The notes beneath the pieces are model-generated. The model had not been told where the DNA came from and made no database searches. It saw only the letters and a program-made list of their open reading frames with translations. A stretch of DNA of 64,000 nt from an uncultured bacterium. Its GTDB lineage: Bacteria; Arandabacterota; Arandabacteria; Arandabacterales; Arandabacteraceae. The stretch spans positions 2,974-66,973 of the forward strand of contig CAYHHI010000013.1 of assembly GCA_964356335.1 (NCBI GenBank), given 5' to 3'. How positions within the stretch are numbered: the stretch's first letter is position 1; each line of letters begins with the position of its first letter. Positions 5,806 through 54,382 of this stretch are shown piece by piece. The position numbers were made by a program, and so were the translations under genes.

Positions 5806-6759
5806 TCACATTCTTGTTACGAGTAGTCTCTGCATCCTCCTCTTTTTCATCAGCGTTCGCATTTTTTGAATTGCTCTCTTCTCGATCTGCCTGATTCGCT
5901 CGCGCGTTATCCCGACCATCTTACCTGTTTCGGCGAGCGACCTCAGGTTCCCGTCCTCAAGCCCGAAACGGTAGGCCAGTATCTGCCGTTCTCGCTCGGA
6001 GAGATCATTAAGAAGAGCATCAAGCCGCCTCGAATCTATCCTGCCGAGAGCGTCCTCATCGGGCGGCATGTTTGACTGGTCGGTAAGGACCTCATGGAGG
6101 CTGACCTCACCGTCAGGAGAGCATGGCGAATCAAGTGATACGGTGGACGCGGCATTCGTTATCTCGGCATATCTCACCGCAGAGATGCCTATGCGGCGGC
6201 ATACCTCGGTTTCACACGGCAGGGTGTTTCTCGTCTGTATAAGACTCTGCTCCATGACCCTGACCCTGCGCATGATGTCAATCACGTTCGCGGGCAATCT
6301 CACCGTTCTCGAGTCTGTTGCCAGCGCCTTTGTTATCGCCTGTCTTATCCACTTCGAGGCATAAGTGCTGAATCTGAAGCCCTTCTCATACTTGAAACGC
6401 TCGACAGCCTTTATGAGGCCGAGGTTGCCTTCGCCTATCAAATCAGTAAGCGGCAGGCCCATGCCCCGATATCTCCGTGCAATCGCCACCACAAGCCTCA
6501 GGTTGGCTCCGATCATCTTCTCCTTGGCCATCGGGTCCCCCCTTCTCACGCGCAAAGCGACAACCTGCTCTTCGCCTTTTGTGAAGAGAGGAATCCGGCT
6601 TATGGCTTTAAGGTAAAGAGCCAAGCTCTCCGCTGCCCATTCAGCACCGACACCTGGCGATCGCGTTAGCAAGGATTCATCCTCTGCTTGATATTGCCTC
6701 AGGGAGATCTCGGGATCCTCTTCGTCGATGAAGGGTCGGTCCAACATCGCCTCATCCAT
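5806..6759 (-). CDS. sigma-70 family RNA polymerase sigma factor (group 1/2, RpoS/RpoD-like, 317 aa)
   Basis: Regions 1.2 to 4 recognisable: LRLVVAIARRY, DLIGEGNLGLIKAVERFKYEKGFRFSTYASKWIRQAI, region 4 LSERERQILAYRFGL...ITRERIRQIEKRAIQKMR. Confidence 0.85.
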   Translation of the reverse strand: MDEAMLDRPFIDEEDPEISLRQYQAEDESLLTRSPGVGAEWAAESLALYLKAISRIPLFTKGEEQVVALRVRRGDPMAKEKMIGANLRLVVAIARRYRGMGLPLTDLIGEGNLGLIKAVERFKYEKGFRFSTYASKWIRQAITKALATDSRTVRLPANVIDIMRRVRVMEQSLIQTRNTLPCETEVCRRIGISAVRYAEITNAASTVSLDSPCSPDGEVSLHEVLTDQSNMPPDEDALGRIDSRRLDALLNDLSERERQILAYRFGLEDGNLRSLAETGKMVGITRERIRQIEKRAIQKMRTLMKKRRMQRLLVTRM

Positions 6760-6846
6760 CCTTCGGTGCCCACCCCTGGTTCTGGCCCCGCCTGGAGCCT
6801 CGACCTACAGGAGACGAGGGGCTCACCGTAGTCACTAAGGTAAACC

Positions 6847-6862
6847 GCAAGTTTTGTGCCGG
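6847..6862 (-). promoter_or_regulatory. sigma-54 (-24/-12) promoter candidate upstream of the sigma factor gene
   Basis: The minus strand reads cCGGCAC-aaaac-TTGC (forward GCAA 6847-6850, N5, GTGCC 6856-6860, GG 6861-6862), with GG-N10-GC spacing exact. It lies ~90 nt upstream of the ATG at 6759, in the 314-bp gap between the EBP gene and the sigma factor gene. Confidence 0.5.
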
Positions 6863-7073: not shown

Positions 7074-10000
7074 TCACGGAACGATGCGGTAGCGTTGGAT
7101 TTTGTTGAGGAGCCCGCGCCTACTGAGGCCCAAGTTCCTGGCAACCTTGCTCTTGTTGCCGTTGAAACGATACAGCGCCTCCCTGATCATCTGCCTCTCG
7201 ATCTGTTCAACAGCTTCGACGAGGCCATGCCTACCGTCAGAGCCGACAATGCTTCCCCAGGTGCGCAGCTCATCAGATAAGAAAGCCGGTGTGATCGCCT
7301 CTCCGTCCTCAACGAAAGTGACCGCCCTCTCGACCTCGTGCTCGAGCTGCCTGACGTTGCCCGGCCACGAGTAACTCACGAGAAGGTCCATTGCAGAGGG
7401 AGCGAACCCCGCCACCGCCTTTTCCATCTCGCCGGTGTATTTCTCGAGGAAGTACTCGGCAAGAAGCGGTATGTCATCGCGCCTATCGCGGAGAGCCGGC
7501 AGCTTCAAGGATATGACCTTCAACCTGTAGTAGAGGTCTTCAAGAAATCTCTCGCCTTCCACTTCTTTGGCAAGATCCTTATTGGTTGCACATATCAGCC
7601 TGAAATCAGCCTTCTTCGAGACCGTTGACCCCATGGGCTTGAATTCTCGTTTGTCAACGACCTGGAGCAACCTGTCCTGGAATTTTCTGGAAGTCTTGTC
7701 TATCTCATCCAGGAAAACCGTACCGCCCTCCGCGGCTTCGAAAAGACCGGTTCTGTCGGCCCTTGCATCAGTAAAGGCACCCTTCACATGACCGAAGAGC
7801 TCACTCTCCACAATCTCAGTCGATAGTGCCGAGCAGTCAATCGTCACGAAGGGCCTACTGCACCTGTCTCCGCTCAGATGAATAGCCCTTGCAAGCATCT
7901 CCTTGCCGGTCCCCGTTTCACCCTCGACCAGGACCGTGGTTGATGTCTTTGCGAGGAACCTCACAGACTCGAGAATCTCCAGCATCTTCTTGTTCTGGCT
8001 GATGATCCCCTGGACGTGACAGGATGCCTCGAGCTTGCTCCTCAAGAACCTTGCCTCTTCCATGAACCTCGCCAGCTGCGCCTCGGAGAGCACGCTCTTC
8101 AAGATGCCGACTATGGCGACAACGAACTCGACGTCACTTCGGGTGAAGAAGTGATCCGCACAGTCGGTATCGAGGTATATGCAGCCTACCGTGTCGCCTC
8201 TCAGCGTAAGGGGAACGCACATCACGGCGCCCTGGAGGACTCCTGCCGTGGCCAGGCCGGCCAGCCGTTCATCTTTACCAATGTTCGCGCTGACAAGCGG
8301 CCTGTTCAAATCCTCTGCAATCCTGAGTATCGTCTCCACGGCCGGTACGGCTTGCGTACACTGCCGGGTCTCAAGATCCTTCGACGCGAGAGGTTCGAGC
8401 TTCCCATTGCGCCTGAGAAGGATCAGCCCCCTCTCAGCCGAAGTCCTGTCCACACAGGCGTCAAGCGCCAGCTGCAACTTACTCGCCTGGTCTCCGGCAC
8501 CGAGGATGCGAGCCATAATCACATTGAAGACTGACAGATCCCCGGAGTCACTCACCGACAGGCATGAAATCTGCTCATCCGCCTGCTTCTGAATGCTTTC
8601 GATATCATCAGCGAATATGCTGGGAATGTCACCGCCAAATATCTGCATCAGCTTGTCGAGATACTTGCGACACTGCTCTACGTCTCCCCGCACAGCCGCA
8701 ATCCTGCCTAAGGCCACAGCGGAGAGCCCAGCTTCATAAACCATCTCAAGCTCTTCAAAAATCCCCAACGCCTCGGTAAGATAACTCGCGGCAATGTCGC
8801 CGGAAGATGATTGGGTGGAAAGCAGCTGTCCCGCTCTCAGATAGGTCAACCCCAGCTCTTTCCTCTCCCCCAGGGAATAGAGCAAGTTTATCGACTTGGC
8901 GAAGGTCTCTCTAGCTTTTTCCCACTCTCCGAGTCCAAACTCTGCACAAGCCTTTGACCGCAGGGCACAACCCTGCTCGAAGACCTCCTTGAGGTCCACT
9001 GCCAGTCTATACGCCTCTCGAGCGAGCTCAAGGGCGGCAAGGTAATTCGTGCGAGCCGACTCGACGTCCGCAAGCCTTCGCTTGACCTCCACGACAACGT
9101 CGCCCTGGGGTGCGATCTCCTCGCCGATCTCAAGCGCCTGAAGGTAATGGCGATGAGCCGAATCGATCCGGCCGCACGCCATTTCCACGTCGCCCACATA
9201 TTCGAAGCTCAGCGCAGACCCGCGGGCATCACCGTTGTCGGAGCTTTCTTTCATCGCAAGCACATAGTATTGCTGGGCCCGCTCGACATCCCGGTAGGTA
9301 AGGTAGTAGTGGCCGAGAGCGAGATATACCGACACCAGCTCCCACCTGTTGCCGATCCTTGCAAGGACTTCCAAGGCCTCAGTCCAACACCTGTGGGCCT
9401 TCTTCCAGTACCCTCGCTTCGAGTAGATTATGCCGAGATTGGTGAGGCGCACACCTTTCTGAAGATGCTGCCCGACTTCCTCAGAGATCCGCAAGGCTTC
9501 CTCAAGATAGGCCTGAGACTCAGACCAAAGCCCGAGGTTCTTGCACGCAAGACCGAGGTTATTGAGGCACGTGCCTACCAGTTCCTTGTCATTGACGACC
9601 CGCGCCACCGACAAGGCGGACCGAAGGAACTCAAGGGCTCTCTCGGTGTCTCCCTTCCTGGCGTACACTCCGGCGAGGCAGTTATAAGTGTCGACCAGCT
9701 CTTTTCCCCTGCCCCCAGCAAGCATTATCTCCAGAGCTGATTCGCAATCTGCCTGGGAAAGATCGTACTCCCCTATCTTGAAATGCACCCATGCCCTCTC
9801 GCTAATTATGCGCGCGAGCTCGACCGTGTCTTCGCCCTCTGATACCAGCATGAAAGCCTTGTCCAGGAGCTCAAGGGCATGGTCGCACTTGCCAATCCGC
9901 ATATAGCAGATGGCCAATCTTCTGAGCAAAGAAGCTCGTCGAGGGTTGAGATCCTTGGAGTTGCCGGTTAGAGCCAGGAGCTTCGTAAAATAATCTATTG

Positions 10001-10157
10001 CAGTAGAGAATTCCCCACTGGCCAGACAGAAGTCACCGAGATCTTCAATCGATGCGGCTACGCCCTTCTGGCCTTCTCGTCCTTCATCTCTCTCTGTAGG
10101 CTCACCGCCGTGTGACTTGTCCATCTCACCCTTTCCCCGCTGATAAAAGGGTGACAA
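7074..10157 (-). CDS. sigma-54-dependent transcriptional activator (enhancer-binding protein) with N-terminal TPR repeats and a GAF domain
   Basis: 1027 aa: ~530 aa of TPR-like repeats, a GAF-like region (aa ~545-690), an AAA+ sigma-54 interaction domain (GETGTGKE, ESELFGHVKGAFTDA, GNVRQLEHEVERAV) and a C-terminal Fis-type HTH (KSKVARNLGLSRRGLLNKI). No receiver domain. Confidence 0.9.
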   Translation of the reverse strand: MSPFYQRGKGEMDKSHGGEPTERDEGREGQKGVAASIEDLGDFCLASGEFSTAIDYFTKLLALTGNSKDLNPRRASLLRRLAICYMRIGKCDHALELLDKAFMLVSEGEDTVELARIISERAWVHFKIGEYDLSQADCESALEIMLAGGRGKELVDTYNCLAGVYARKGDTERALEFLRSALSVARVVNDKELVGTCLNNLGLACKNLGLWSESQAYLEEALRISEEVGQHLQKGVRLTNLGIIYSKRGYWKKAHRCWTEALEVLARIGNRWELVSVYLALGHYYLTYRDVERAQQYYVLAMKESSDNGDARGSALSFEYVGDVEMACGRIDSAHRHYLQALEIGEEIAPQGDVVVEVKRRLADVESARTNYLAALELAREAYRLAVDLKEVFEQGCALRSKACAEFGLGEWEKARETFAKSINLLYSLGERKELGLTYLRAGQLLSTQSSSGDIAASYLTEALGIFEELEMVYEAGLSAVALGRIAAVRGDVEQCRKYLDKLMQIFGGDIPSIFADDIESIQKQADEQISCLSVSDSGDLSVFNVIMARILGAGDQASKLQLALDACVDRTSAERGLILLRRNGKLEPLASKDLETRQCTQAVPAVETILRIAEDLNRPLVSANIGKDERLAGLATAGVLQGAVMCVPLTLRGDTVGCIYLDTDCADHFFTRSDVEFVVAIVGILKSVLSEAQLARFMEEARFLRSKLEASCHVQGIISQNKKMLEILESVRFLAKTSTTVLVEGETGTGKEMLARAIHLSGDRCSRPFVTIDCSALSTEIVESELFGHVKGAFTDARADRTGLFEAAEGGTVFLDEIDKTSRKFQDRLLQVVDKREFKPMGSTVSKKADFRLICATNKDLAKEVEGERFLEDLYYRLKVISLKLPALRDRRDDIPLLAEYFLEKYTGEMEKAVAGFAPSAMDLLVSYSWPGNVRQLEHEVERAVTFVEDGEAITPAFLSDELRTWGSIVGSDGRHGLVEAVEQIERQMIREALYRFNGNKSKVARNLGLSRRGLLNKIQRYRIVP

Positions 10158-33221: not shown

Positions 33222-33240
33222 GAGTGGGCTTTGCCCACTC
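33222..33240 (-). terminator. short stem-loop between the giant gene and rimP (candidate terminator/attenuator)
   Basis: GAGTGGGC (33222-33229) / GCCCACTC (33233-33240) is an 8-bp perfect stem with a 3-nt loop. On the minus strand it is followed by UUAAAGUUUCU. It lies 46 nt after the giant gene stop and 14 nt before the rimP start. Confidence 0.35.
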
Positions 33241-33285
33241 ATGGACAAACTTACAATAGGGCCGATTGGAATGCAAGCAAAAACA

Positions 33286-36200
33286 TTAGAAGCGGATGAG
33301 GACGGAAACGCTCAGACCAATGGTTCTCCAGGTCTGTTCGAGCTTGCGGTCGGTGGTCTGCTCGAAGCGTGCATCGGCGGAGCCTGTGACGCTGGTGCTG
33401 AAGCTATAGCTTGCTTTGGGACTGATGGTAAATGTCCTCGTGCTGCTGTCTATCCTGTTCTTGAACGAAGGTGTGGTGCCCACACGTGACTCGAAGGACA
33501 AGTCCAGAGATACTGTGAGGCTGCTCTTGAACTTCAATGTCCTGCCAGCGAGCGGGATGTACATGCCTTCCGGAGCGCTGAAGGAATGTCTCAGCGAGAA
33601 GTTAGCGGAATTTGAGACGAACTTCTTCTCGCTTCCAGTACCCTTAGTGTCCTCAGTGGTGTTACTGCTACGCCGGAGATTGAAGGTCGTCCGCACACCG
33701 TTCTTCCACGTTGCATCCCAGCCGATGACCGGCAGCCACTCCGACCGGTGCCCGCGATTGGTCTCTGTGGCACCCACGCCACTCGCCTGCCTCGACCGCT
33801 TGTAGCCCACCGTGATCGAGGAAGTCTTTACGGCTCCCCTGAAAAGCGGCAGATAGACCGTCGAAGAGATGTTGCCGGCAACATCAGGCCAGACGGTTTG
33901 CCTGTCAAAGGTTGTCGCACCGGCATAGGTCCTCGTTTTCTTGTCATGCTTGTACTTGGTGGTCAGGGAAACTGTCTCGACAGGCTTGAATTCCGTGGAA
34001 ACGTCGTAGCCGTCATTCCTCGTGATCTCATCAGTGGGCAGTCCGGCTCCGCCTGACGTTCCTGCGCCCGAGGGCCTCAGGATAGCGTCCTTATCCACCT
34101 GAGGATCTATTCCGAGTTGAAACCTCAAACCCGGCCGTTTCATAAGCTTGTTGTATCTGGAGCTTCTGTCAACGAAGTAGCCGACATCGATATCTGGAAT
34201 CATGGCAAGGACTCGCCTGTAAATGGGCACTCCGGTTGTATCGGCTCCCTTTTGCGGGGCAGACAAGAACGAAGAAGGCTGAAGCAGGAGATCAATGCTC
34301 GACCTGCTTGAGACGGATGCTCGTCTGACCCCTGGCGGATCATTCGCCGAGCGCACGGAAGGATCGGAATTCTCATCATAGTTGACGTCATAACTCACGG
34401 ATGGTTTGAGTATCTTGCCTATGGTAGGCCTCAGGGTGGCACCCGCTCTCTGGTTCCGATTGAGTTCCCATCCCAGACCGACGCTTGACAGTATCGGCAC
34501 CTGCTTGTTTTGATCGAGGTCCCGCATGGTCTTCAGGCTGTAGTCAGTCTCCAGCGAAGGACCGGTGAGAGGTTTGACCGAAATGGCAAAGTTACCTCTG
34601 ATCTCCCTCGTGTACTGGTTTTTCTTCATAATCTTCTGGCGCTTGTCGAACTCCTTTTCGGTCTTTGTCCAACCGGAAACGGCGAAATCCATACCTTCAG
34701 GAAAATAGGATATTGCATAGCCCCTGTAGATTCTCAGTGAATGGTTCCACCAGGGCTTGAAGGCGTAAGCAAGATTCCCATTGTAGCCGTTTGAGGCGGC
34801 ATCCGACTCGGGTGACTTTCCCTGCCTGCGTGCAAAGGACACCCTTCCGGAAAGGGCGTCGAAGGTAAGCTTCATGAGCAGGTTGTTCGATTTCTGCCTC
34901 CGAGAGAAGGCCAGACTGTAGTTGTTATCGACCGACGTTCGCTCCTCTTTTTTTCGCTGCTGCGGCGTCGTAAGAGCGACATCGGACCGGCTGCTCAGAG
35001 TGGGCAACGACCGGGCAGTGTGATAACCCACCGAGAACGGCAGGGACATCCCGAGTGGGGGAAGGAATCTGTCAAGTGAGGTGGATCCTGATAGGGAGAG
35101 ATCGGTATCATCAGATCCTCTTCTGGTGCCCCCGAGGTTCTGAAATTCGGTGTCGGTCTGCTTGAGATCGGCACTGACGCTCATCACATCCGACAAGGCC
35201 GCCCCCACCGAGATTCGCTTTGCAACCCCCATCTCACGGCGCACATCAGTCAGTCTCAGATCATCAAACCAGACTTCAACCGCAGTGTCGCTCGTTGGAG
35301 CTGTCCCGCGGTTCACCACACCCGCGCCGATCCGCGATACCCTCGTTATGGAAGGCTCACCATAGACTGCGATCCAGGTGGCTTCAGTCAGGGGCCTCTC
35401 CCTCCTCAAAACCGGCTTGCCATAGAGGGTGACCGTCGTCGTATCCATGCTTGTCTTGAGGTTGGTTATCTCATCAAGCTTCAACCGGACGTCACTCCAG
35501 CCAGGGGTCACCTTCATGCCGTATTCGTAGAAGTTGATACTGTCCGCACCTATCCTCAGGAAGAAGCTCAGATCTTCAGCGGATGCATTCGGGTCGCCAT
35601 GGACATAAAACGCGAGGGTATGGTAGAGGGTGTAGTCACCGGCATTTCCCGGCAAGGTCTTGTAAACCGACCCGCAGTTTCCCGCTTCGAGGTTCCGGAG
35701 GCCGAATACCAGCGACTGCTCCCGCTTCTTGTAGCCCTCAGGATCTGTACCGGGATCATAGGGTGGATCATAACTCGGGTCATCTCGCGTGTTCTTGGCT
35801 GATATTTCAAAGGACTCTCGGGGAAGCCGCTCGACGCGGGCCATGTCTTCCTTCCTGCGTATTCCCTCCTCGAGCCAACTCGCGCCCGAGATTTGCAGGT
35901 AGGCTAGCTGGAAGACTGAAGGTGTATCGACGCCGGTGAAGAAGAAGCGGACATATCTTATTGATTTCCAGCTGGGCGAGCCGCCGAGCGCGTCCGCATC
36001 GGCCAAAGGAATCATGTAGTGGCACCAATCCCCCGAACGCCCCACAATGTAAGTGGTGTCGGAGAGGTCAAAACCTAGTCTAAAGAGGACCTCGTCTTTG
36101 TCGAGGTTCCCATTACCGTCAATGTCTTCGGTATCGGGTACCAAATTGGGGTCGCCCTCGGTGCCGTTTATGTGGGAGTAGTCTCCTTCACTGTAAGACC

Positions 36201-38940
36201 AGTTGTCCTCATACTCCACCTGGTCGTCGCCTGGCTGGCCATCGGGTATGCCGTCAAGTCCCGTGTTCTCGTCTTCACTCAGCTTGCCGTCACTATCCTT
36301 GTCCTCGGTGTTAAGCGTGTCGGCCCAGGGATGGTAGAAGTTCTCGCTCACGGCACCAAGGTCAACGTACATCTTCCCCCTGTGGCCCTCCTTCTTCCTG
36401 AGCCAGACTTCGAGAAACCTGAGATCCGAGTAATCGCTTCCGGTCTTTGACACAAGCCGCTCAAGCCCCGACCACTGCTTGGCTGTGTCAGGATCCGGAG
36501 CAACCCAGCCATATGCGAACTTCCTGAAGTTGATTTCAAGAACCGGAATGAAGGCTTCCCCTGGACGGGACTCCGCCTCTGGGAAGAGATCCTGCTCCTT
36601 GACTTCCCTGTCCTTGACGTACCACCAGATCTTGCGGTTGTCCCTGTAGTAGAAATCTGTCGGGGGACTTGCGGGCACCCAGGCTTCCCGGATCAGCGAA
36701 AAAGACCTCAAGTCCCTCACTCCTTCCATATCATCTATGTAGACATCACGCTTGGTATTGGGATTGGGAAAACTTGCCGCCACTTCGGCTGAGATTGACA
36801 GTCTTGAGGGGCTTTGTGCCTGGACCATGGGAAGCGCATTGGTGATCGCGGTCATCCACTTCGGCTGGAATTCCAGCCGCGTATTGACGTCGCCGACCAT
36901 GATCTGAGAAGGTTCCTGGCCCAGCCTGGGCCGTTCCTCGGGGGATTTCTTGCTCTGGTAGATCCAGGCCGTACTCAAGTAGGACTGTTCCGAGAACTTG
37001 TAGGTGCCCTGGATGCCCAAAAGAGATTGCTGGGCTAAAGCGAGGAAGGGCACATATTGGTAATCTACGGTTATCTGTGCATCGGGACTCGCCGCTTCGT
37101 CGATCTTGAATCTTATCTGCCCCACGTCATAATAGATCTCATAGTCAACATTGCGCGTGAGCCGCCTTCCGTTGAGCGTTACGGTCTCGCTTCCCTCAAG
37201 GATATTGACATTGTTCAACTTGAATATGGTCTGCGGGGTGGAGAACCAGACCACCATATAGTACTTGCTGTTCTCGGGCTTGAGCTTCCTGGGATGAATG
37301 TCGTAAATATCGGGGTTTCCATCATCGAGAGTCTCCGGTCTGGCATCCATCAGCTGTATGTCGGGATCGAAGGGCCTGAGGTCTGGAAACAGGAGCAGCC
37401 CCAGCTCGCCGTTTACGGTTCCGCCGTCGGCATACCCGTCCGTGCGCCAGCCGTTTGCCGGGCTCGCTTTCACATTGCTCTCATCCTCAAGGTCTATCCC
37501 GAGAACCTTCGAATACTCATACTGCCGCTGGACGTCCTTGACATCTCCGCCCGGGTCCTTGCGGTAAATCTTCACCAAGACCTTCCCCTCGGAGACGTAG
37601 CTCGCGCCGAGCGAATAGACGTTCTTGCGCTCATACCTGAGGGTACCGCCCCAGAGTCCCTCCTTTTCTATCATGTCCGTCTCGGTCGGGCGTATCATCT
37701 TCAGCAAGCGCACGTTCTTGTCACCATACCCACCATACCCGCCCACCACCATGTCGCCCCACTTGTAAGTGACAGCCAGCGTATGCGCGGCATCGAGGGC
37801 TCTGAGGAGCGAGATCTCACCGGTACGCTGGTCTATCGCATAGTCTCTGTTACGCTCAAGGATGTCGAAGAAGCCGTGATAGGTCGAGTCCGCCCAGCCG
37901 GCGGAATCCGATGGCACCCTGTCAGGATCAAGCAAAGCATAAGCCTCGACCGCACCCTCACCGATGTTGTTATTGCCGTTGCCGTCATCCAGGTAAACTT
38001 CGACCTCGGTGACTTCAGGGCAGGGCTCGGGCGCAATCTTGCGGCAGTATTCAAGCCTCTCATAGGGATCAATCATGAAGAAGTATTTGTTCTTGACAAA
38101 GTCCATGTCTGAGAGTCTTACCGAATCTCGCTCAGCCGCTCCCACGAATCGCGCCCCGGCAGTTCTGCCTTCCTGCTTGCTGGCGATCACGGTCATATCC
38201 ATGGCCCCTAGCTTAGCAAGCACCTTGGCTCCGAAAAGACCCTGGTGCTGTTCGCTGTAGCCCACAAACTGGGAACCCGGCATGGACAGGTTGGTATTAC
38301 CCATTTCCACACTCTGCACGATCTCGTCGTCATCGCCCTTGTAATTGAGCTTTATGCGGTTCTCAAGGGGTGTTTCGACATCGCTATCGTGATGAACCAG
38401 TACGTTTATTTTCTCGCCCACGGTTCCCTTGAGGTCTATCCTGAGATGCTGCTTCATATTGAGCTGAGGAAACTTAGATGGTCTTCCGTATTCGGTCAAA
38501 GGTTGATTTACCCTGTATCTTGTCTGGCCGCCGAAGGTGATCTGTTCGCTGCCGGTGACGCTCAAGTTTGCTCCCTGCCCGATCACTCGGCCTATGGTCT
38601 TGGGGAACTTGACCGGTATGTCTATGCTGCTGAAGTCTCGAAGGGACATCGCATGTTCCTCAAAGACCCTGCCCGAGCCGGCTTTGATCCAATTCTCCCT
38701 GAGAGCGCCGTTGAAATCCTGCTCAAGCACCGGCTTCTGCATGAATTCGGGGAAGGCGAACCGCGGGCCGAGATTTGTACCGCTCGAAGGAAACCTGAGC
38801 GAGACTTCCGATGTGGGGCCGGCCGAGAGGCTGTCAGAGGACGTTCCGAAGCCAAGGGAGTCAGCGCCCTCGGAGACGCTTACGTATCCGAAGACCAGAA
38901 GCCCAAAGATTATGGCCCAGTAACCATCATGTGCTCTCAT
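33286..38940 (-). CDS. giant (1884 aa) secreted outer-membrane protein with Asp-rich Ca-binding-like repeats and a C-terminal beta-barrel; possibly SprA/Sov-like (T9SS translocon family), unverified
   Basis: Signal peptide MRAHDGYWAIIFGLLVFGYVSVSEGA; Asp/Gly-rich segment DKDSDGKLSEDENTGLDGIPDGQPGDDQ...DIDGNGNLDKDE; alternating beta-strand-like C-terminal ~600 aa ending ...GLSVSVLIRF (terminal Phe, OMP signature). One uninterrupted ORF. Confidence 0.8.
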   Translation of the reverse strand: MRAHDGYWAIIFGLLVFGYVSVSEGADSLGFGTSSDSLSAGPTSEVSLRFPSSGTNLGPRFAFPEFMQKPVLEQDFNGALRENWIKAGSGRVFEEHAMSLRDFSSIDIPVKFPKTIGRVIGQGANLSVTGSEQITFGGQTRYRVNQPLTEYGRPSKFPQLNMKQHLRIDLKGTVGEKINVLVHHDSDVETPLENRIKLNYKGDDDEIVQSVEMGNTNLSMPGSQFVGYSEQHQGLFGAKVLAKLGAMDMTVIASKQEGRTAGARFVGAAERDSVRLSDMDFVKNKYFFMIDPYERLEYCRKIAPEPCPEVTEVEVYLDDGNGNNNIGEGAVEAYALLDPDRVPSDSAGWADSTYHGFFDILERNRDYAIDQRTGEISLLRALDAAHTLAVTYKWGDMVVGGYGGYGDKNVRLLKMIRPTETDMIEKEGLWGGTLRYERKNVYSLGASYVSEGKVLVKIYRKDPGGDVKDVQRQYEYSKVLGIDLEDESNVKASPANGWRTDGYADGGTVNGELGLLLFPDLRPFDPDIQLMDARPETLDDGNPDIYDIHPRKLKPENSKYYMVVWFSTPQTIFKLNNVNILEGSETVTLNGRRLTRNVDYEIYYDVGQIRFKIDEAASPDAQITVDYQYVPFLALAQQSLLGIQGTYKFSEQSYLSTAWIYQSKKSPEERPRLGQEPSQIMVGDVNTRLEFQPKWMTAITNALPMVQAQSPSRLSISAEVAASFPNPNTKRDVYIDDMEGVRDLRSFSLIREAWVPASPPTDFYYRDNRKIWWYVKDREVKEQDLFPEAESRPGEAFIPVLEINFRKFAYGWVAPDPDTAKQWSGLERLVSKTGSDYSDLRFLEVWLRKKEGHRGKMYVDLGAVSENFYHPWADTLNTEDKDSDGKLSEDENTGLDGIPDGQPGDDQVEYEDNWSYSEGDYSHINGTEGDPNLVPDTEDIDGNGNLDKDEVLFRLGFDLSDTTYIVGRSGDWCHYMIPLADADALGGSPSWKSIRYVRFFFTGVDTPSVFQLAYLQISGASWLEEGIRRKEDMARVERLPRESFEISAKNTRDDPSYDPPYDPGTDPEGYKKREQSLVFGLRNLEAGNCGSVYKTLPGNAGDYTLYHTLAFYVHGDPNASAEDLSFFLRIGADSINFYEYGMKVTPGWSDVRLKLDEITNLKTSMDTTTVTLYGKPVLRRERPLTEATWIAVYGEPSITRVSRIGAGVVNRGTAPTSDTAVEVWFDDLRLTDVRREMGVAKRISVGAALSDVMSVSADLKQTDTEFQNLGGTRRGSDDTDLSLSGSTSLDRFLPPLGMSLPFSVGYHTARSLPTLSSRSDVALTTPQQRKKEERTSVDNNYSLAFSRRQKSNNLLMKLTFDALSGRVSFARRQGKSPESDAASNGYNGNLAYAFKPWWNHSLRIYRGYAISYFPEGMDFAVSGWTKTEKEFDKRQKIMKKNQYTREIRGNFAISVKPLTGPSLETDYSLKTMRDLDQNKQVPILSSVGLGWELNRNQRAGATLRPTIGKILKPSVSYDVNYDENSDPSVRSANDPPGVRRASVSSRSSIDLLLQPSSFLSAPQKGADTTGVPIYRRVLAMIPDIDVGYFVDRSSRYNKLMKRPGLRFQLGIDPQVDKDAILRPSGAGTSGGAGLPTDEITRNDGYDVSTEFKPVETVSLTTKYKHDKKTRTYAGATTFDRQTVWPDVAGNISSTVYLPLFRGAVKTSSITVGYKRSRQASGVGATETNRGHRSEWLPVIGWDATWKNGVRTTFNLRRSSNTTEDTKGTGSEKKFVSNSANFSLRHSFSAPEGMYIPLAGRTLKFKSSLTVSLDLSFESRVGTTPSFKNRIDSSTRTFTISPKASYSFSTSVTGSADARFEQTTDRKLEQTWRTIGLSVSVLIRF

Positions 38941-38989
38941 CGATTGAGTCTTTCAACCAATATACTAAGCCCCGCAGACCCCAGCAAGG

Positions 38990-39004
38990 GCAACTTTTGT
39001 GCCA
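38990..39004 (-). promoter_or_regulatory. sigma-54 (-24/-12) promoter upstream of the giant OMP gene
   Basis: The minus strand reads TGGCAC-aaaag-TTGC, a perfect consensus (forward GCAA 38990-38993, N5, GTGCCA 38999-39004), ~50 nt upstream of the ATG at 38940. It shares 13/14 nt (GCAAnTTTTGTGCC) with the site at 6847-6860. Confidence 0.55.
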
Positions 39005-39140
39005 TGCCTGGGCTCAGAACCTCCCTCTCGTCCACACCCGCAAATAGCACAGGAATAATAGGCTTGCCCTTGCCGGACCCCTGTAGTAACTTGGCTCTGA
39101 AAGATTTGCGGTGACCCCATTTAGGTACGTTGGTGTACAA

Positions 39141-40466
39141 ATGAAGACACTTCATAAATACATCCTCACCCAGCAGGTAGCACCTTTCCTTTTCGGCATT
39201 TTCATCATTATCTTCATTCTTGTCCTGGATTTTCTTTACAAGAACCTCGAAATGCTCATCGGCAAAGGCGTGCCGATAGCCATCTCAACAGAGCTCCTGG
39301 TCCTGAGCCTCGGCTGGATGATCGTGATGGCCGTCCCCATGGCGGTCCTGATAGGCACGCTGATCTCCTTCATGCGCCTTGCTTCCGACAACGAGATCGT
39401 GGCCATGAGGACAAGCGGGATAAGCCTGTTCGCGATTGCCAAGCCCCTCCTTGTGGCCTCCTTGCTGCTGTCCTTCGGGATGATACCCGTCCACAACTAC
39501 CTCGTTCCCGAAACCAATCATAGATTAGCAAATCTGCTTGTATCAATACACAGAAAAAAGCCTGCGCTCCAGCTCAGGGACGGCGTTTTCATCAATGACA
39601 TAAAGGGCATCAGTATCCTTGCTGAGAAGGTCAGGGGCAACCGGATTGAAGGAGTAACAATTTCGAAGCTGGTCGAGGACAAACCTGCACAGACCATCAG
39701 GGCCGAGCGAGGGGATGTACATTTCGCCGAAGATGGCAACACGCTTGTCCTCAAGCTTTATGACGGTGAGATCCACGATGTTGACCAGAAGGATCCAAAG
39801 CGTTACTTGAGGCTCAAGTTCGCCGAGCACACGCTTAACATCCCGGATGCAGGGGGCAAGCTCATGATGATAGAGCGGGAATACCGCGGCGAACGCGAGA
39901 TGAGCATAAGTTCCCTGAGAGGTGAGGTTGCCAAGATCAAACGAAAGATGGCGGATGGGAATGGACAGGTGAGAGAGATCATCGAGAAGGCTGCCCAGGA
40001 ACTCCCTGAGATCAGGAAGGCTGACTTGTCAGATGAAACGCGGCCTAAGTCGAGTGGCAAGATCGTTGCCCTCTTGACCTCGACGCAGGATAAGCTTCAG
40101 AGTCTCAAGAACCAGGAGATGGGCTACAGGAGAAGTATGAGAGCGTACTCAGTTGAGATACATAAGAAGATTGCGATTTCATTCGCCTGTGCCGTGTTTG
40201 TGCTTCTCGGAGTGCCGATAGGCGCCAGAACCAAGGAAGGCGGGACCGGTGCGGGCATGGTCGGGAGCATCTCGGTGTTTGCGATCTACTATGCTTTCCT
40301 CACTGCAGGCGAGAAACTCGCAGACCGAGGTTTCGTGCCGCCCTTCCTGTCCATGTGGGCCGCCAATATACTGCTGGGCACAATCGGTCTGTGGCTCTTC
40401 ATAAGAGCCAACAGGGAGCTTCCCTTCATCCCCCATAAGATCCGCGCCCTGGTAGGGAGAACCTGA
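39141..40466 (+). CDS. lptF: LptF/LptG-family LPS export permease (YjgP/YjgQ)
   Basis: Start MKTLHKYILTQQVAPFLFG (the track ORF begins 10 codons earlier), six TM helices around a periplasmic beta-jellyroll insert; 442 aa. Confidence 0.8.
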   Translation: MKTLHKYILTQQVAPFLFGIFIIIFILVLDFLYKNLEMLIGKGVPIAISTELLVLSLGWMIVMAVPMAVLIGTLISFMRLASDNEIVAMRTSGISLFAIAKPLLVASLLLSFGMIPVHNYLVPETNHRLANLLVSIHRKKPALQLRDGVFINDIKGISILAEKVRGNRIEGVTISKLVEDKPAQTIRAERGDVHFAEDGNTLVLKLYDGEIHDVDQKDPKRYLRLKFAEHTLNIPDAGGKLMMIEREYRGEREMSISSLRGEVAKIKRKMADGNGQVREIIEKAAQELPEIRKADLSDETRPKSSGKIVALLTSTQDKLQSLKNQEMGYRRSMRAYSVEIHKKIAISFACAVFVLLGVPIGARTKEGGTGAGMVGSISVFAIYYAFLTAGEKLADRGFVPPFLSMWAANILLGTIGLWLFIRANRELPFIPHKIRALVGRT

Positions 40467-40467
40467 T

Positions 40468-41556
40468 TTGAGAACCCTGGACAGGTATGTTCTCGCCGAG
40501 TTTACCAGGATGATATTGATAGGCGCGCTGGCCTTTATCGCGGTCTTTGTCACCCTGGATATGGTGGAGAACGTCGATGATTTTGTGGATAACGACGTCG
40601 GCGTCCTTACTGTGCTCAAGTACTACGCCTTCCAGATCCCTTACATTTTCACACTCACCTTACCTGTGGCGGTCCTCATATCTTCACTTTTCACGATCGG
40701 CCAGATGGCAAGGCTTAACGAACTGGTAGCGATGAAGGCGTCCGGCATTCGCTTCGCAAGATCAATCGTGCCGCTGGCTGCGGCAGGCCTCGTGGCTAGC
40801 CTGGTGGCGCTGAGTGTTGCCGAGTTTGTCGAGCCCGGTGCGGATGCTATTGTGAGGAGCATCAAGAACAATGAGATCAGGAAATCCTCGGCTAAGACCG
40901 AGCCAAGAATAAGGTCCAACGTAACCTATCGAGGCAAGGCCGGCCTTTTTTACTTCGCACCTGAGTATGATACTAGACTCAATACCATGAAGGATCTTGT
41001 CGTTGAACAATCACAAGCAGGGAAACTGATCTTCCGCCTCAACGCGACTGAGGCAGTCTGGAAGGATTCGATCTGGATACTATCGGAAGCCTGGGTGAGA
41101 TGGTTCTCAGAGGATGGTGAAGTGGAACGCGAGACTTACATAACCCAGGGCTCCCTCCCGATGGTCAAGGATTACCCCAGAGACATTCTGCGAGAGCAGC
41201 GAAACCCTGAAGAGATGAGCTACAGGGAACTGGCGCGCCTGGTGCGGAAGATAGATGAGAGCGGAGGGGATTCGGCGAAGTATCGCGTAGGCCTCGCCAT
41301 GAAGATGTCGTTCCCTTTTGCCAATCTTATAGTTGTGCTCATCGGCTCACCTCTTTCCGCGCGGCTCCGCAGGGGTGGCCTGGCTGTGGGCGTGGGCACA
41401 GGACTTGGGCTATGCTTTGTCTATTACGGCTTCGTGAGGGTCGGTCAGGCACTGGGCGATCATTCGGTGCTGCCGCCACTTGTCGCGGCATGGGCAGGCA
41501 ACGTCTTCTTCGCCGTCTGCGGAATCGTCCTGATACTCAGGGCTGAGAAGCGCTAA
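40468..41556 (+). CDS. lptG: LptF/LptG-family LPS export permease (second paralog)
   Basis: MRTLDRYVLAEFTRMILIGALAFIAVFV, same architecture, 362 aa; starts 1 nt after the lptF stop. Confidence 0.8.
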   Translation: MRTLDRYVLAEFTRMILIGALAFIAVFVTLDMVENVDDFVDNDVGVLTVLKYYAFQIPYIFTLTLPVAVLISSLFTIGQMARLNELVAMKASGIRFARSIVPLAAAGLVASLVALSVAEFVEPGADAIVRSIKNNEIRKSSAKTEPRIRSNVTYRGKAGLFYFAPEYDTRLNTMKDLVVEQSQAGKLIFRLNATEAVWKDSIWILSEAWVRWFSEDGEVERETYITQGSLPMVKDYPRDILREQRNPEEMSYRELARLVRKIDESGGDSAKYRVGLAMKMSFPFANLIVVLIGSPLSARLRRGGLAVGVGTGLGLCFVYYGFVRVGQALGDHSVLPPLVAAWAGNVFFAVCGIVLILRAEKR

Positions 41557-45064: not shown

Positions 45065-46111
45065 CTAATCTTCCATTCCACCCTGTTTGAGCAAGGTCTT
45101 GATCCTGTCGATCGTTTTTATCGGGGTCGGATCAACACCCCTGGCAAGCGCAAGATAGACACTTCCATAATCACCCAGTAATATCAGTGAAAACATCCTG
45201 CTTAGCAAGCTGGATCCGCTCGTCCAGAACTCTCCGCAAAAAAAGGCATTGTCCCCGATGACGTCCTTAATCAGGGCAAGGCTCCGGGCGGCCTGCGGAT
45301 GCTCATCCGAAGTCCTCAGCACGATAACTCCCGCGGTTATGCCTCGGGCTTCGACTTCCCAGCCCATGATCTCATTGTGGTTCGCCTCGGGGACGACGCT
45401 TGTAAACGCCAACGTCTTGGCATTCTCGCAGAACTGGTTCTTCCACCTGAGGCCTACGGCATCCAGGTCGGTGCCACAGTAGATTAGGGGTATGCGCGAT
45501 ACGAGATCCCTTGCCAGGCGCACCGCCGGATTGGCATCCGTCTCGTGTCGGACATAGACCTTGGTCAGACTCTCCAGGGTATCGGCGCATTCGCACAGCT
45601 CATCTTCAGGATGCGCGCACAGACCTGCCTTCCAGGCAAGAGCCAGCAGGGTCGCGAAGCAGTAGCCAAGACCGGCTCTCGGCGGAAACCCCATGGGGAT
45701 CTTCACATACGGTATCCCTCGCAGGCGTGCTTCCTCGAGCAGGTGGCCATCAGATGTTATGCACACCACAAGGGCGTTTCTTGAAATGGCTTCGCGGAAG
45801 CATGAGAGTGCTTCCTCGGTATTGCCTGAGTAAGAGGAGATGACAACCAGCGAACCCTCGCCGACGAAGCGCGGCAGGCCGTAATCCCTTAAGACAAAGA
45901 CCGGAATGCCTGAGTGCCTCGAAAGATAGATCCTCAGGAGGTCCCCGCCTATGGCAGAGGCTCCCATGCCCGCAATCGCGAGGGTTTTCGGCTCGATCCT
46001 CTCCAGGGATCGCCATGCTTCTTCGCCAAGCCTGAAGCCCAGTCGAAGCTGCTCAGGAAGGCTTCGAATCTTCCCCAACATGTCAGATGAGTCCAAGGTG
46101 AGACTCCTCAT
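45065..46111 (-). CDS. bifunctional phosphoglucose/phosphomannose isomerase (archaeal-type PGI/PMI, SIS domain)
   Basis: 348 aa, a SIS fold with SYSGNTEE; the architecture is typical of TIGR02128-type PGI/PMI. Confidence 0.7.
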   Translation of the reverse strand: MRSLTLDSSDMLGKIRSLPEQLRLGFRLGEEAWRSLERIEPKTLAIAGMGASAIGGDLLRIYLSRHSGIPVFVLRDYGLPRFVGEGSLVVISSYSGNTEEALSCFREAISRNALVVCITSDGHLLEEARLRGIPYVKIPMGFPPRAGLGYCFATLLALAWKAGLCAHPEDELCECADTLESLTKVYVRHETDANPAVRLARDLVSRIPLIYCGTDLDAVGLRWKNQFCENAKTLAFTSVVPEANHNEIMGWEVEARGITAGVIVLRTSDEHPQAARSLALIKDVIGDNAFFCGEFWTSGSSLLSRMFSLILLGDYGSVYLALARGVDPTPIKTIDRIKTLLKQGGMED

Positions 46112-47871
46112 AGAAGCATTTCAGGACGGTCTTTGCCAATGATCTCCATGGCGAGCCTCCTTGTCCGGGCCGGGTCGACGGTGGTGAGGGCCTCTTCCGC
46201 AACTCTCCGGGCATCCGCATAGCTCACCGAGCGCACCATTTCCTTTACCTCGGGCACCACATAAGGGCTGGCGCTCAACTCGTCAATGCCCATTCCCAGC
46301 AACACCAACGCGCAGACGAGGTCACTGGACATCTCACCGCACAGGCCGACCCAGATGCCGGCCTCTTTTGCCTTGCAGATGGTCTCACTGATAAAGCGGA
46401 GCACGCCGAGATGTAAAGGCTCATAGAGATAGGCAACCTTCTCGTTGCCGCGGTCGGCGGCAAGCGCATACTGGATCAGGTCATTGGAACCTATGCTGAA
46501 GAAGTCAACATGCTGAGCGAGCTCCCGCGCGATCATCACTGCGGCCGGCGTCTCGATCATTATTCCGACCTCGGAGTCAGCGTCGAACTTATGGCCTTCG
46601 CCCGCAAGTTCTCGCTTTGTTTCATCGAGGACCTCGATCGCCTGAATGATCTCTTCAAGATTGGAAATCATGGGATACATTATCTTCACATTGCCGTGGA
46701 CACTTGCCCTCAGGATCGCCCGCAGCTGCGTCTTGAAGATGTCCTTCCTCGCGAGACAGAACCGAATGCCGCGCCAGCCGAGATATGGGTTCATCTCTTT
46801 CGGGCTCTCGAATTCGGAAAGAAACTTATCCCCACCCAGGTCCATGGTCCTTATTATGACGGGGTCGGGTTTCACCTTTGAGGCCACGGCCTCATAAATC
46901 CTGAGCTGTTCGTCCTCGCTGGGAAGGCCTTCCCTTCCAATGTAAATGAACTCCGTTCTGTAGAGACCGATGCCATGCGCCCCGTGTTCTAGAACCGAAT
47001 CGACCTCTTCATGAGACTCTATGTTAGCCGAGAGCATTATTGAATGGCCATCGATCGTGACCGCCGGCAGGTCCCTGAAACGGAGAAGCCCCGTGGTCAC
47101 ACTGGCGAAATGCTGAAGCTCATGGCTGTATCTGTCGATGGTTTCAGGCGAAGGCGAAACGATCACCCTTCCCCTGTTCCCGTCAACGATGACGAAGTCG
47201 TCGTCCTGCACTCTCACCGTCACGTTGTTCAAGCCAACCACGGCGGGGATCTCGAGGGACCTGGCCATTATTGCCGTGTGAGACGTCCTGCCCCCGACGT
47301 CAGTAGCAAATGCCTTCACCTTTTCTCTGCGCATCTGGGCAGTGTCAGCGGGCGAAAGGTCGTGCGCGATGACCACCACATCGGAGCCTAGATTGGACAG
47401 GTCATTGGCATCCCTGTTTGTTCCCGAAAGGTTCGAAAGCACCCTTATCCTGACGTCCCTTATGTCCGCGGCCCTGTCCTTTATGTAAACGTCCCCCTTT
47501 GCCCAGAGCAGTCTCTCATGTCTTGAGAGAACGGCGCTCAGGGCAAATTCAGCGTTGTTGCCACTGCGCACCCCCGCAATCACCTCATCGATTGACATCT
47601 TGTCTTCGAGTATCATTACGTGAGCATCGAAGATCCTTGCGTAGGACTCGCCCATCTCGTGCGCAACCTTATTTCTAACGTCCAGAAGCTGTGCCTTCGT
47701 GACCCCAAGCGCCCCCATAAGCCTCTCGATCTCACCGTCAATCTCATCGGGTGAGAGCCGCCGCCTGGGCACCCTCATGTCGGTCCGTGCAAGGACAAGC
47801 GCATTGCCCATTGCAATGCCCGGTGAGGCAGCAACGCCGTTTGCCACACCCTCCACCTTCTTGCCTGTCAA
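46108..47871 (-). CDS. ptsI: phosphoenolpyruvate-protein phosphotransferase (PTS Enzyme I)
   Basis: 587 aa; phosphohistidine domain (GGRTSHTAIMARS...) and a PEP-utilising C-terminal domain. Confidence 0.9.
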   Translation of the reverse strand: MTGKKVEGVANGVAASPGIAMGNALVLARTDMRVPRRRLSPDEIDGEIERLMGALGVTKAQLLDVRNKVAHEMGESYARIFDAHVMILEDKMSIDEVIAGVRSGNNAEFALSAVLSRHERLLWAKGDVYIKDRAADIRDVRIRVLSNLSGTNRDANDLSNLGSDVVVIAHDLSPADTAQMRREKVKAFATDVGGRTSHTAIMARSLEIPAVVGLNNVTVRVQDDDFVIVDGNRGRVIVSPSPETIDRYSHELQHFASVTTGLLRFRDLPAVTIDGHSIMLSANIESHEEVDSVLEHGAHGIGLYRTEFIYIGREGLPSEDEQLRIYEAVASKVKPDPVIIRTMDLGGDKFLSEFESPKEMNPYLGWRGIRFCLARKDIFKTQLRAILRASVHGNVKIMYPMISNLEEIIQAIEVLDETKRELAGEGHKFDADSEVGIMIETPAAVMIARELAQHVDFFSIGSNDLIQYALAADRGNEKVAYLYEPLHLGVLRFISETICKAKEAGIWVGLCGEMSSDLVCALVLLGMGIDELSASPYVVPEVKEMVRSVSYADARRVAEEALTTVDPARTRRLAMEIIGKDRPEMLL

Positions 47872-47873
47872 GT

Positions 47874-48143
47874 CTACTCCCCTTCGTTGAACTTTGCTTC
47901 GATGAGCCCAATGACGATCATCAAGGCGTCTTCTTCATCCGGTCCATCTGCTATCACGGTGAGCTCAGTCCCGATTGCAGCCTCAAGCCCAAGGACCCCC
48001 ATTATGCTTTTGGCGTCAACCTTGATGTCATTCTTGCGGATGTGAACATCCGATCGAAAGGCAGACGCCGCCTGCACAAGCAAAGCAGCGGCCCTCAGGT
48101 GAAGGCCCATCTTATTTGTTATAGTCACCTTACGCTCGACCAT
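47874..48143 (-). CDS. ptsH: phosphocarrier protein HPr
   Basis: MVERKVTITNKMGLHLRAAALLVQ with His15, and KSIMGVLGL with Ser46. The ATG at 48141-48143 is preceded by GAGGT, so the real start is there; the track ORF extends 52 codons upstream. Confidence 0.85.
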   Translation of the reverse strand: MVERKVTITNKMGLHLRAAALLVQAASAFRSDVHIRKNDIKVDAKSIMGVLGLEAAIGTELTVIADGPDEEDALMIVIGLIEAKFNEGE

Positions 48144-48341
48144 ACGTACCTCATAATGCCGAGGCCTCGCAGAAAAGTCAACCCACCATTCTCGGCCGGC
48201 CGCGACAGGCTTTCTGCGGGACCAGTTGGAACCGGGCGTTGGCTGGCGTTCGCGGGACGATCTTCGGGCCCCCCAGGGACCACCAAGCCCTCTTTTCACC
48301 CAGGGTCGAACCTGGCCCGAGGAGAGACCGAGGCGGTGTCG

Positions 48342-50582: not shown

Positions 50583-52001
50583 CTAGTAGTGCTTCCTCAT
50601 CCTTGCAGGGAATATTGCAAGCAGGTCTCTGTACTTGGCGACCGTGCGGCGGGCCACGTAGAAACCTTCCCGCTTGAGAATCTCGCCAATCTCCTGATCG
50701 CTCAGGGGCTTATCTTTGTCTTCCTTGTCTATCAGTTCCTGGATTATCGCTCTGATCTTTTTCGAGGAGGCCACATCCCCACTCTCTGTCCTCAAGCCTG
50801 TCGAGAAGAAGTACTTGAGTTCGAACACGCCCCTGGGCGTCTGAACGTACTTGCTGCTAGTCACTCGGCTCACAGTGGACTCATGCATCCCCACTCTTTC
50901 GGCTATCTGCTGGAGAGTGAGGGGCCTGAGGTGCTCGACCCCTTTTTCCAAGAAGTCCATCTGAACCTCAAGGATGGCTTCCATTACCTTGACCATGGTT
51001 CTTCTCCGTTGGTCGATCGTCCTTATGAGCCATCTTGCCGAATTGAGCTTGTCAACAACGTAGTCATGGTCCTGTTTGTTTCTACCACCGGAATTGGAAA
51101 GAATATCCCTATAGGCACGATTGATTCTCAAGCGAGGAACATTCCGGTCGTTAAGCTGAACCACATAGCGATCTTCAACCTTCTCGACGATGAGGTCAGG
51201 CAGGATATACCTTGGCTCCTCAGTTGCATATCTTGTGCCCGGGCGAGGATCGAACCTCGCGACAACCTCGGCAGCGGCCTGCACCTCCTTGATAGTCTTC
51301 TTGACCTTCCTTGCGATGTCCGGGTACCGCCGCTGAAGCAGATCGTCAAGATACTCTCTCACCAGGGTTGCCGCCAGCGTGTCCGCAAGACCGGCTTGCT
51401 CCAGCTGCATGAGCAAACACTCCTTGAGATCCCGTGCCCCGACGCCGGGTGGATCAAATGTCTTGATCAGGGCAACTACCTTCGCGGCGTCGTTCTCCTC
51501 AATCGAAAGCAGTTTGGCGATCTCCTCCGCCGAAACCGTGAGGAAGCCGTTTGCGTCCAGGCTGCCGATTATGAACTCGCCTATCCGACGCTCTTCCTCC
51601 GACGCGGTCGCCATTCTGAGCTGGGATAACAGGTATTCTTCCAGGGTTGGCCTCGCCGCCGGCACCTTATCCTGGAATTCCTCCTGTTCTTCCATCTCAC
51701 CAGAGGAGCGTGCACCCATCTCAAAACCGTCCTTGAGGTAGCGGTCCCAGTCTATACTCTCCTCACTGGTCTTCAGCTCCCCCTCATCCTCACCCTCCGG
51801 CACCTCCTCGGCAGGCTCATCCTGGGCTTCGTCATCGACCTCGTCGACTTCTTCCAACATAGGATTGATCATCAGCTCGCACTTTAGTATCTGCTGGAGT
51901 TCAAGCGCCGGTACCTGGAGGAGCTTTATCGCTTGCTGCAGCTTGGGAGTCATCACCAGTCTCTGGCTCAACTCAGGTCTCATTTCCTGTCTCATGTCCA
52001 T
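50583..52001 (-). CDS. rpoN: RNA polymerase sigma-54 factor
   Basis: N-terminal Gln/Leu-rich region I, a core-binding domain and a C-terminal RpoN box (ARRTVAKYR). Confidence 0.95.
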   Translation of the reverse strand: MDMRQEMRPELSQRLVMTPKLQQAIKLLQVPALELQQILKCELMINPMLEEVDEVDDEAQDEPAEEVPEGEDEGELKTSEESIDWDRYLKDGFEMGARSSGEMEEQEEFQDKVPAARPTLEEYLLSQLRMATASEEERRIGEFIIGSLDANGFLTVSAEEIAKLLSIEENDAAKVVALIKTFDPPGVGARDLKECLLMQLEQAGLADTLAATLVREYLDDLLQRRYPDIARKVKKTIKEVQAAAEVVARFDPRPGTRYATEEPRYILPDLIVEKVEDRYVVQLNDRNVPRLRINRAYRDILSNSGGRNKQDHDYVVDKLNSARWLIRTIDQRRRTMVKVMEAILEVQMDFLEKGVEHLRPLTLQQIAERVGMHESTVSRVTSSKYVQTPRGVFELKYFFSTGLRTESGDVASSKKIRAIIQELIDKEDKDKPLSDQEIGEILKREGFYVARRTVAKYRDLLAIFPARMRKHY

Positions 52002-52027
52002 CGCTTAAACCCCCGAATCAAACTGAT

Positions 52028-54221: not shown

Positions 54222-54382
54222 CGGTAGGCAAGATCGAACATTTCCTGGCTCACACCAAGATGTTAGATGAGCAGAGACCTCATGTCAAGCATGTTCTGTG
54301 CCAGATTCGCGCGATTGAGCGAGATTCGGATGTTCCGCGCGTGACGAGAACGTGTCCGCCTGAAGTCGGCCATTCTGCCTGA

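Follow-up and report, generated by a model that had tools for sequence, protein, structure and literature searches.

Several bacterial surface machines are controlled by sigma-54 (RpoN) together with an enhancer-binding protein (EBP), among them the type VI secretion system of Vibrio cholerae through VasH, the hrp type III secretion system through HrpR/HrpS, flagella through FleQ/FlrA and type IV pili through PilR. Type IX secretion system (T9SS) activity is generally assumed to be constitutive. That sigma-54 controls the bacterial exterior is a theme argued by Francke et al. 2011 (PMC3162934), and in Porphyromonas gingivalis T9SS genes are regulated by PorX/PorY-SigP, according to Kadowaki et al. 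2016 as cited in PMC9723704. No report linking sigma-54/RpoN to T9SS or SprA was found in the literature searched. Here we describe a 64,000-nucleotide stretch of contig CAYHHI010000013.1 (hereafter the window, to which all coordinates refer), in which a -24/-12 element probably acts, judging from its sequence and conservation, as a functional sigma-54 promoter driving sprA/sov, the gene of the T9SS outer-membrane translocon. The DNA comes from an uncultured lineage with Candidatus Eisenbacteria (Eiseniibacteriota) as a relative. Sigma-54 control of secretion machines is already established; new here is the target, a T9SS translocon, and its occurrence in an uncultured candidate phylum.

The target gene, a 1884-aa open reading frame (ORF) with an N-terminal signal peptide (33286..38940, minus strand), scores 521 bits against the NCBIfam equivalog TIGR04189 (cut-off 200) and 78 bits against Pfam SprA_N (9.7e-22, cut-off 27), and by these profile matches it is the T9SS translocon SprA/Sov. 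Within the 203-nt gap between this gene and a divergent ORF with its ATG at 39144(+), positions 38990-39004 of the plus strand are GCAACTTTTGTGCCA, which is TGGCACAAAAGTTGC on the minus strand, i.e. TGGCAC-AAAAG-TTGC. The putative promoter core (38989..39004, minus strand) consists of TGGCAC (39004-38999, -24), the spacer AAAAG and TTGC (38993-38990, -12), followed by C. Exactly 10 nt separate the doublets GG (39003-39002) and GC (38991-38990), and the -12 C lies 50 nt 5' of the sprA ATG at 38940. An initial annotation of this DNA had placed a -24/-12 element here, on the minus strand and about 50 nt 5' of the giant gene, and its sequence, strand and distance are all confirmed.

Apart from an enhancer, the sprA element shows every sequence-level property by which a sigma-54 promoter is recognised. 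Like the canonical promoters described by TGGCAC-N5-TTGCW (glnAp2, pspA, nifH), it has GG and GC 10 nt apart within a full TGGCAC and TTGC (10/10 positions of TGGCAC-N5-TTGC), lies 20-50 nt 5' of a start codon, and occurs in a genome with rpoN and an EBP. It differs in that the base after TTGC is C or G at this locus and its orthologs and not A/T (C in the window, a minor departure), that no enhancer (upstream activator sequence) was found at sprA, and that the site stands back-to-back with a divergent housekeeping promoter ~60 nt away. The locus resembles the VasH, HrpR/HrpS, FleQ and PilR systems in that an envelope-spanning export machine would come under an activator-dependent sigma-54 promoter, but here the target is the T9SS translocon, the comparison covers the pore gene of the apparatus, and there is no adjacent activator gene. 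It would share with PorX/PorY-SigP a signal-dependent control of T9SS component genes via an alternative sigma factor, which in P. gingivalis is a sigma-70-family factor of the extracytoplasmic function (ECF) type acting with a two-component system, whereas here the predicted sigma-54 promoter would need an AAA+ activator.

To place the element in an evolutionary context, we compared orthologous loci. SprA orthologs number about 30 at 52–73% identity, all of them from unclassified "bacterium" metagenome-assembled genomes (MAGs) and metagenomes; a related MAG carries the label Candidatus Eisenbacteria. The next tier lies at 30–37% identity (including Gemmatimonadota) and at ~29% in Krumholzibacteriota. 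Seven ortholog loci, with GC contents of 46–62%, were compared with the window, giving eight loci in total (SprA identities: L003 73%, L007 67%, L001 61%, L008 59%, L009 55%, L010 53%, L011 52%). All seven share the gene order metK-ahcY-lptG-lptF, divergent from sprA-rimP-nusA-infB, and the motif TGGCA[CT]-N5-TTGC[CG] is present on the sprA strand at the equivalent position in 8/8 loci; its distance to the start codon of lptF is 127-141 nt in the seven orthologs. The ortholog boxes read TGGCACGAAAGTTGC (L003), TGGCACGGAACTTGC (L001), TGGCACGGAAGTTGC (L007), TGGCATGGAAATTGC (L008), TGGCATAGAAATTGC (L009), TGGCACAGAACTTGC (L010) and TGGCATGGAACTTGC (L011). At a constant length of 5 nt, the spacer is variable in sequence (GAAAG, GGAAC, GGAAG, GGAAA, AGAAA, AGAAC and GGAAC in the orthologs), and the -12 C precedes the likely sprA start codon by 24-51 nt.

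In the alignment of the eight sequences (A3), nine of the ten specified box columns are invariant, compared with 27 of the 236 other columns, and in a heuristic position weight matrix (PWM) scan the box is the top or a near-top match in each 10-25 kb ortholog locus. On this alignment, a -24/-12 promoter has left a clear phylogenetic footprint upstream of sprA. The motif thus precedes the orthologous giant genes as well (7/7), and the claim that a sigma-54 promoter is aimed at the giant gene gains from the box in all eight loci and from the presence of rpoN and an EBP in the window. More distant SprA homologs at 23–36% identity (L002, L005, L006, L012, L013) had no upstream box, with best PWM scores of at most 7 compared with 12-15. 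This includes a Bacteroidales MAG (L002), which together with L005 and L006 bears on the comparison with PorX/PorY-SigP, as these distant loci are without the sigma-54 box. In two of the orthologs the sprA start in the ORF list (L001, 9701) or gene call (L008, 4001) lies 5' of, or runs through, the sigma-54 box; these annotated SprA N-termini are probably too long, since downstream starts (9761 or 9767 in L001, 4055 or 4076 in L008) give a normal signal peptide.

Within the window, the exact sequence TGGCAC-N5-TTGC occurs once compared with 0.13 expected, and at least once in 13 of 100 shuffles, so that by itself this match has no significance within the window. When one mismatch was allowed, there were six matches (4.5 expected). 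The shorter GGCAC-N5-TTGC was found three times (0.65 expected), a count reached in one of 100 shuffles, and all three matches are intergenic and oriented toward the next gene start. The top three PWM matches in the window (15947-15962, 54288-54303 and 38989-39004) lie without exception at "promoter-class" positions, a class that covers 3.2% of the window (P ~3e-5), and four of the top ten belong to it (P ~2e-4). The initial annotation had based its chance estimate on ~3 kb of intergenic DNA, which is too low; our count is ~6.8 kb.

The machinery to use such a promoter is encoded nearby, as both rpoN and an EBP gene are in the window. The rpoN gene (50583..52001, minus strand) encodes 472 aa with the activator-interacting, core-binding and DNA-binding Pfam domains and an intact RpoN box, RRTVAKYR, at residue 451; rpoN orthologs are found on the same contigs as sprA orthologs. 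The EBP (7074..10157, minus strand, 1027 aa) carries TPR repeats, a GAF domain, a sigma-54 AAA+ domain (Sigma54_activat, 6.8e-61) and HTH_8, with the Walker A motif GETGTGKE and the loop GAFTDA, both of which are kept in four orthologs. GAFTDA is an accepted loop variant compatible with activation, listed for Desulfovibrio (PMC4641369).

In the proposed mechanism, sigma-54 RNA polymerase would bind TGGCAC/TTGC at 39004-38990 and form a stable closed complex, which would be unable to open unaided and would be opened by an AAA+ EBP via ATP hydrolysis. Transcription would start near 38978, placed 12 nt 3' of the -12 C by standard sigma-54 geometry, giving a predicted 5' untranslated region of ~38 nt (38941..38978, minus strand) that leads into sprA, and the transcript would end before a separate rimP-nusA-infB promoter and hairpin. 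We infer from this the start site and activator dependence, and consequently that production of the secretion pore is gated by a signal. A clade-wide sigma-54 promoter at the translocon gene predicts that secretion capacity is switched by a signal via an ATP-dependent activator, and would add T9SS to the envelope machines under sigma-54 control. The prediction is testable without culture, the practical limit being that all genomes involved are MAGs.

Several points weigh against the sprA element as a functional sigma-54 promoter. The eight loci are all MAGs or metagenome contigs of one clade and are hence non-independent observations, and the matrix behind the PWM scan was built from consensus frequencies and is not curated. 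No activator-binding site was found upstream of sprA, where neither alignment A3 nor an inverted-repeat search gave a conserved dyad or inverted repeat; the only inverted-repeat pair spans the lptF start codon, and the conserved blocks at 39058-39100 fit a divergent lptF promoter. Lastly, a weak sigma-70-type pair overlaps the sprA site in the window and in its two closest relatives and may provide basal expression, so that sprA need not be strictly conditional. The earlier proposal that the giant gene is expressed conditionally under an EBP therefore stands in part: it follows reasonably from the sigma-54 mechanism, but no activator site was found and the overlapping sigma-70-type pair could give basal expression.

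This overlapping pair, a possible second sprA promoter (P2; 38959..38987, minus strand), consists of a -35 element TTGCTG (38987-38982), which begins 3 nt after the sigma-54 -12 element, a 17-nt spacer and a -10 element TATATT (38964-38959). If it were functional, sprA could be transcribed mainly from TTGCTG-N17-TATATT, with the sigma-54 box serving as a modulator (for example by occlusion, as bound sigma-54 polymerase would occlude P2) or as a minor promoter. P2 shares its architecture with the conserved lptF and rimP promoters (TTGC..-N17-TAAnTT), it is kept with the same spacing in L003 and L007, and a similar layout recurs upstream of lpxL, where a sigma-54 box abuts a TTGACA -35 element and is conserved. 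However, these are the only orthologs to keep it: its spacing is broken in L001 and it is absent in L008-L011 (alignment A3), hence the five more distant orthologs have lost the pair but retain the sigma-54 box. In addition, the P2 leader would be only ~11 nt long, and TTG-N20-TA-N3-T is a low-information pattern whose retention in the closest relatives may reflect short divergence time. We consider P2 unlikely to be the main sprA promoter, yet in the closest relatives the overlapping sigma-70-type promoter is a live complement or rival to the sigma-54 promoter. The conserved TTGC was also considered as a sigma-70 -35 element in its own right, and was rejected as there is no conserved -10 element 16-18 nt downstream in the eight orthologous sequences.

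Whether the sprA promoter belongs to a special class with a shared activator can be judged from a second sigma-54 site in the window. The plus strand at 6847-6860 reads GCAAGTTTTGTGCC (CGGCACAAAACTTGC on the minus strand, without the T that opens the consensus) and matches the sprA site at 13 of its 14 positions. This predicted promoter (6846..6861, minus strand, CGGCAC-AAAAC-TTGC-G) lies 86 nt 5' of a sigma-70-family gene (5806..6759, minus strand) encoding an RpoD/RpoS-like factor of 317 aa with regions 1.2, 2, 3 and 4, which scores under the NCBIfam cut-offs for both RpoD and RpoS and is annotated as RpoD/SigA-like. The order EBP (~1010 aa), sigma-54 box, sigma-70-family gene is found in all four ortholog loci (L014 77%, L015 68%, L016 62%, L017 61%), i.e. 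in five genomes including the window, and [CG]GGCAC-N5-TTGC is kept in each of the four, where the boxes read CGGCACGGAACTTGC, CGGCACGGAACTTGC, GGGCACACTTATTGC and CGGCACGATGATTGC, respectively. On this conservation the second site, too, is a genuine sigma-54 promoter. Two dyads of the form YGTRA-N7-TCRCR (6973-6989 and 7062-7078) are conserved in the alignment of the cassette (A4) and are good candidates for binding sites of the neighbouring EBP, with six matches to the pattern in the window compared with 1.6 expected. A further conserved stretch, GCCYCTCGTCTC, was observed in the leader of the sigma-70-family gene (cassette 5806-10157, L014-L017).

To the initial annotation the 13/14 identity suggested a specific co-regulated class of promoters; in a fuller form of this idea, the sprA and sigma-factor promoters would answer to the same activator, such as the TPR-GAF EBP at 7074-10157. 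Both sites are indeed genuine conserved sigma-54 promoters by their sequence conservation, and the EBP gene is within the same window. However, the general sigma-54 consensus accounts for nine of the shared positions, and the rest is a coincidentally similar A-rich spacer (AAAAG and AAAAC) which is not kept in orthologs. The sigma-gene spacers of the orthologs are GGAAC, GGAAC, ACTTA and GATGA, and where both promoters could be compared in one genome they diverge: GCA_029933125.1 has GGAAA at sprA (L008) and GATGA at the sigma gene (L017), and GCA_053497275.1 has AGAAA at sprA (L009) and ACTTA at the sigma gene (L016). EBP specificity, furthermore, normally resides in upstream activator sites and not in the core promoter, and a pattern search of the sprA-lptF intergenic region found none of the YGTRA-N7-TCRCR dyads that flank the sigma gene, hence there is no evidence of an activator common to both promoters. 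The shared class does not survive this comparison well and we regard it as quite unlikely. An 11-nt similarity between the two upstream regions, TTGGCTCT[GA]AA, was rejected as an activator site because its distances from the two boxes differ and ~0.5 such matches are expected by chance (an estimate).

A further alternative is that the conserved box is an operator of a dimeric DNA-binding protein (TGGCA-N7-TGCCA) acting on lptFG/sprA and not a sigma-54 promoter. In its favour, the box is partly dyad-symmetric: TGGCA-N7-TGCCA is found in L009 and L010, and in the PWM scan the L010 box scores on both strands. We find this very improbable, as the pattern of conservation is asymmetric (TT before GC never varies, and nothing after TGGCA mirrors it), the putative second half-site ends in two variable bases (CC, GC, CG, GG, CA), unrelated loci of these genomes conserve GGCAC-N5-TTGC too, and rpoN is present. 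That the box is a functionless chance match to the consensus is barely credible: one exact match per 64 kb is only mildly unexpected, but a box kept in position and sequence in 8/8 orthologous loci while its flanks diverged, at a chance per 200-nt region of ~4e-4 (9.5 specified bases), excludes this explanation.

Upstream of lpxL-lptC-lptB-rpoN there is a sigma-54-type box (54288..54303, minus strand, TGGCAC-AGAAC-ATGC-T) abutting a sigma-70-type promoter, TTGACA-N17-TAACAT; the region 54282-54303(-) reads TGGCACAGAACATGC and is followed by TTGACA. At the same place in an ortholog locus with 62% RpoN identity (L018, 4731-4752) the sequence is TGGCATACTAATTGC (TGGCAT-ACTAA-TTGC-T), again followed by TTGACA. 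This suggests tandem sigma-54 and sigma-70 promoters for lpxL-lptC-lptB-rpoN and possible rpoN autoregulation. Since the two further window boxes, at the sigma-factor gene and at lpxL, are conserved in orthologs, sigma-54 promoters appear to be in regular use in the lineage.

RpoN-to-sigma-70-family cascades are known from Borrelia (Rrp2-RpoN-RpoS) and Pseudomonas syringae (HrpR/S-RpoN-HrpL). The second site is similar in that a predicted sigma-54 promoter stands directly 5' of the gene for a sigma-70-family factor and has a dedicated activator, the EBP gene here being immediately upstream, and by its conserved order the EBP/box/sigma-gene cassette forms in effect a cascade from sigma-54 to a sigma-70-family factor. 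It differs in that the activator is a ~1010-aa TPR-GAF-AAA+-HTH protein with a GAFTDA loop, and in that the sigma factor is RpoD/SigA-like and not ECF or clearly RpoS. Taken together with sprA, these sites raise the tentative, and in our judgement rather improbable, idea that sigma-54 is a master switch of envelope building in this candidate phylum, acting on sprA, on lpxL-lptC-lptB-rpoN (with rpoN feeding back on itself) and, via the TPR-GAF activator, on the RpoD/SigA-like factor. If true, activator-gated control would extend to secretion, to lipopolysaccharide (LPS) export and to a major factor of the sigma-70 type, and T9SS activity would be inducible and not constitutive.

Among the neighbouring genes, lptF (39144-40466, plus strand) is divergent from sprA and followed by lptG (40468-41556, plus strand); both encode LPS export permeases with Pfam LptF_LptG matches (2.7e-80 and 1e-78). 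The putative sigma-70-type promoter of lptF-lptG (39064..39092, plus strand) has a -35 element TTGCCC (39064-39069), a 17-nt spacer, a -10 element TAACTT (39087-39092) and an AATAAT tract upstream. The eight-sequence alignment shows two further conserved intergenic blocks, GCCAAGTTAC and GGCAAG-N3-ATTATT on the sprA strand, which we assigned to this divergent lptF promoter and not to an enhancer because the near-invariant rimP promoter has the same architecture. We also tried to read the blocks as Bacteroidetes-type -33/-7 elements (TTG...TAnnTTTG), and dropped this for the simpler -35 TTGCnn, 17 nt, -10 TAnnnT, which fits lptF, rimP, lpxL and the possible P2 of sprA equally well. An Rfam scan of 38800-39300 gave one miRNA match only, sub-threshold and attributable to chance.

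On the 3' side, sprA is followed by rimP, nusA, infB, a DHH-family gene, truB, ribF and pnp. Between sprA and rimP the intergenic sequence hardly varies among the eight genomes despite their range of 46–62% GC, with a -35 element CTTGCA, 17 nt, a -10 element TAAGTT and then a hairpin. The predicted rimP-nusA-infB promoter, TTGCAT-N17-TAAGTT (33276-33248, minus strand), and the hairpin together mark the end of the sprA unit (33222..33276). The invariant hairpin GAGTGGGC-AAA-GCCCACTC (33240-33222, minus strand) is followed by UUAAAGUU and folds at -21.3 kcal/mol (z -2.3). A promoter and an invariant hairpin directly 3' of sprA suggest that sprA is transcribed alone, as a monocistronic unit. The hairpin may be an attenuator in the rimP-nusA-infB leader, recalling NusA autoregulation, a terminator of sprA, or both. 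Other core T9SS genes (gldK/L/M/N, porV, sprE, sprT) were not found within the 64-kb window.

Several minor observations concern other parts of the window. The rpoN gene is in the classic lptC-lptB-rpoN setting, and the genes after it encode a lipoyl-synthase-like radical-SAM protein, HPr kinase, HPr and enzyme I of the phosphotransferase system (PTS) (46108-49316 and 50583-53361, minus strand), and in L018 a ribosome hibernation factor gene is also present between rpoN and the PTS-related genes. A PTS-Ntr-like gene context is often linked to sigma-54. The top PWM match of the window, CGGCACTAAGTTTGCA at 15947-15962(-), lies 98 nt 5' of a fused Na/Pi-cotransporter-PhoU gene (13797-15848), and a -10-like box is another possible reading of this candidate. 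Finally, a candidate 402-aa ORF (11324-12532, plus strand) has no Pfam match and overlaps the 3' end of an asparaginyl/lysyl-tRNA synthetase-like gene (12421-13731, minus strand) by ~110 nt.

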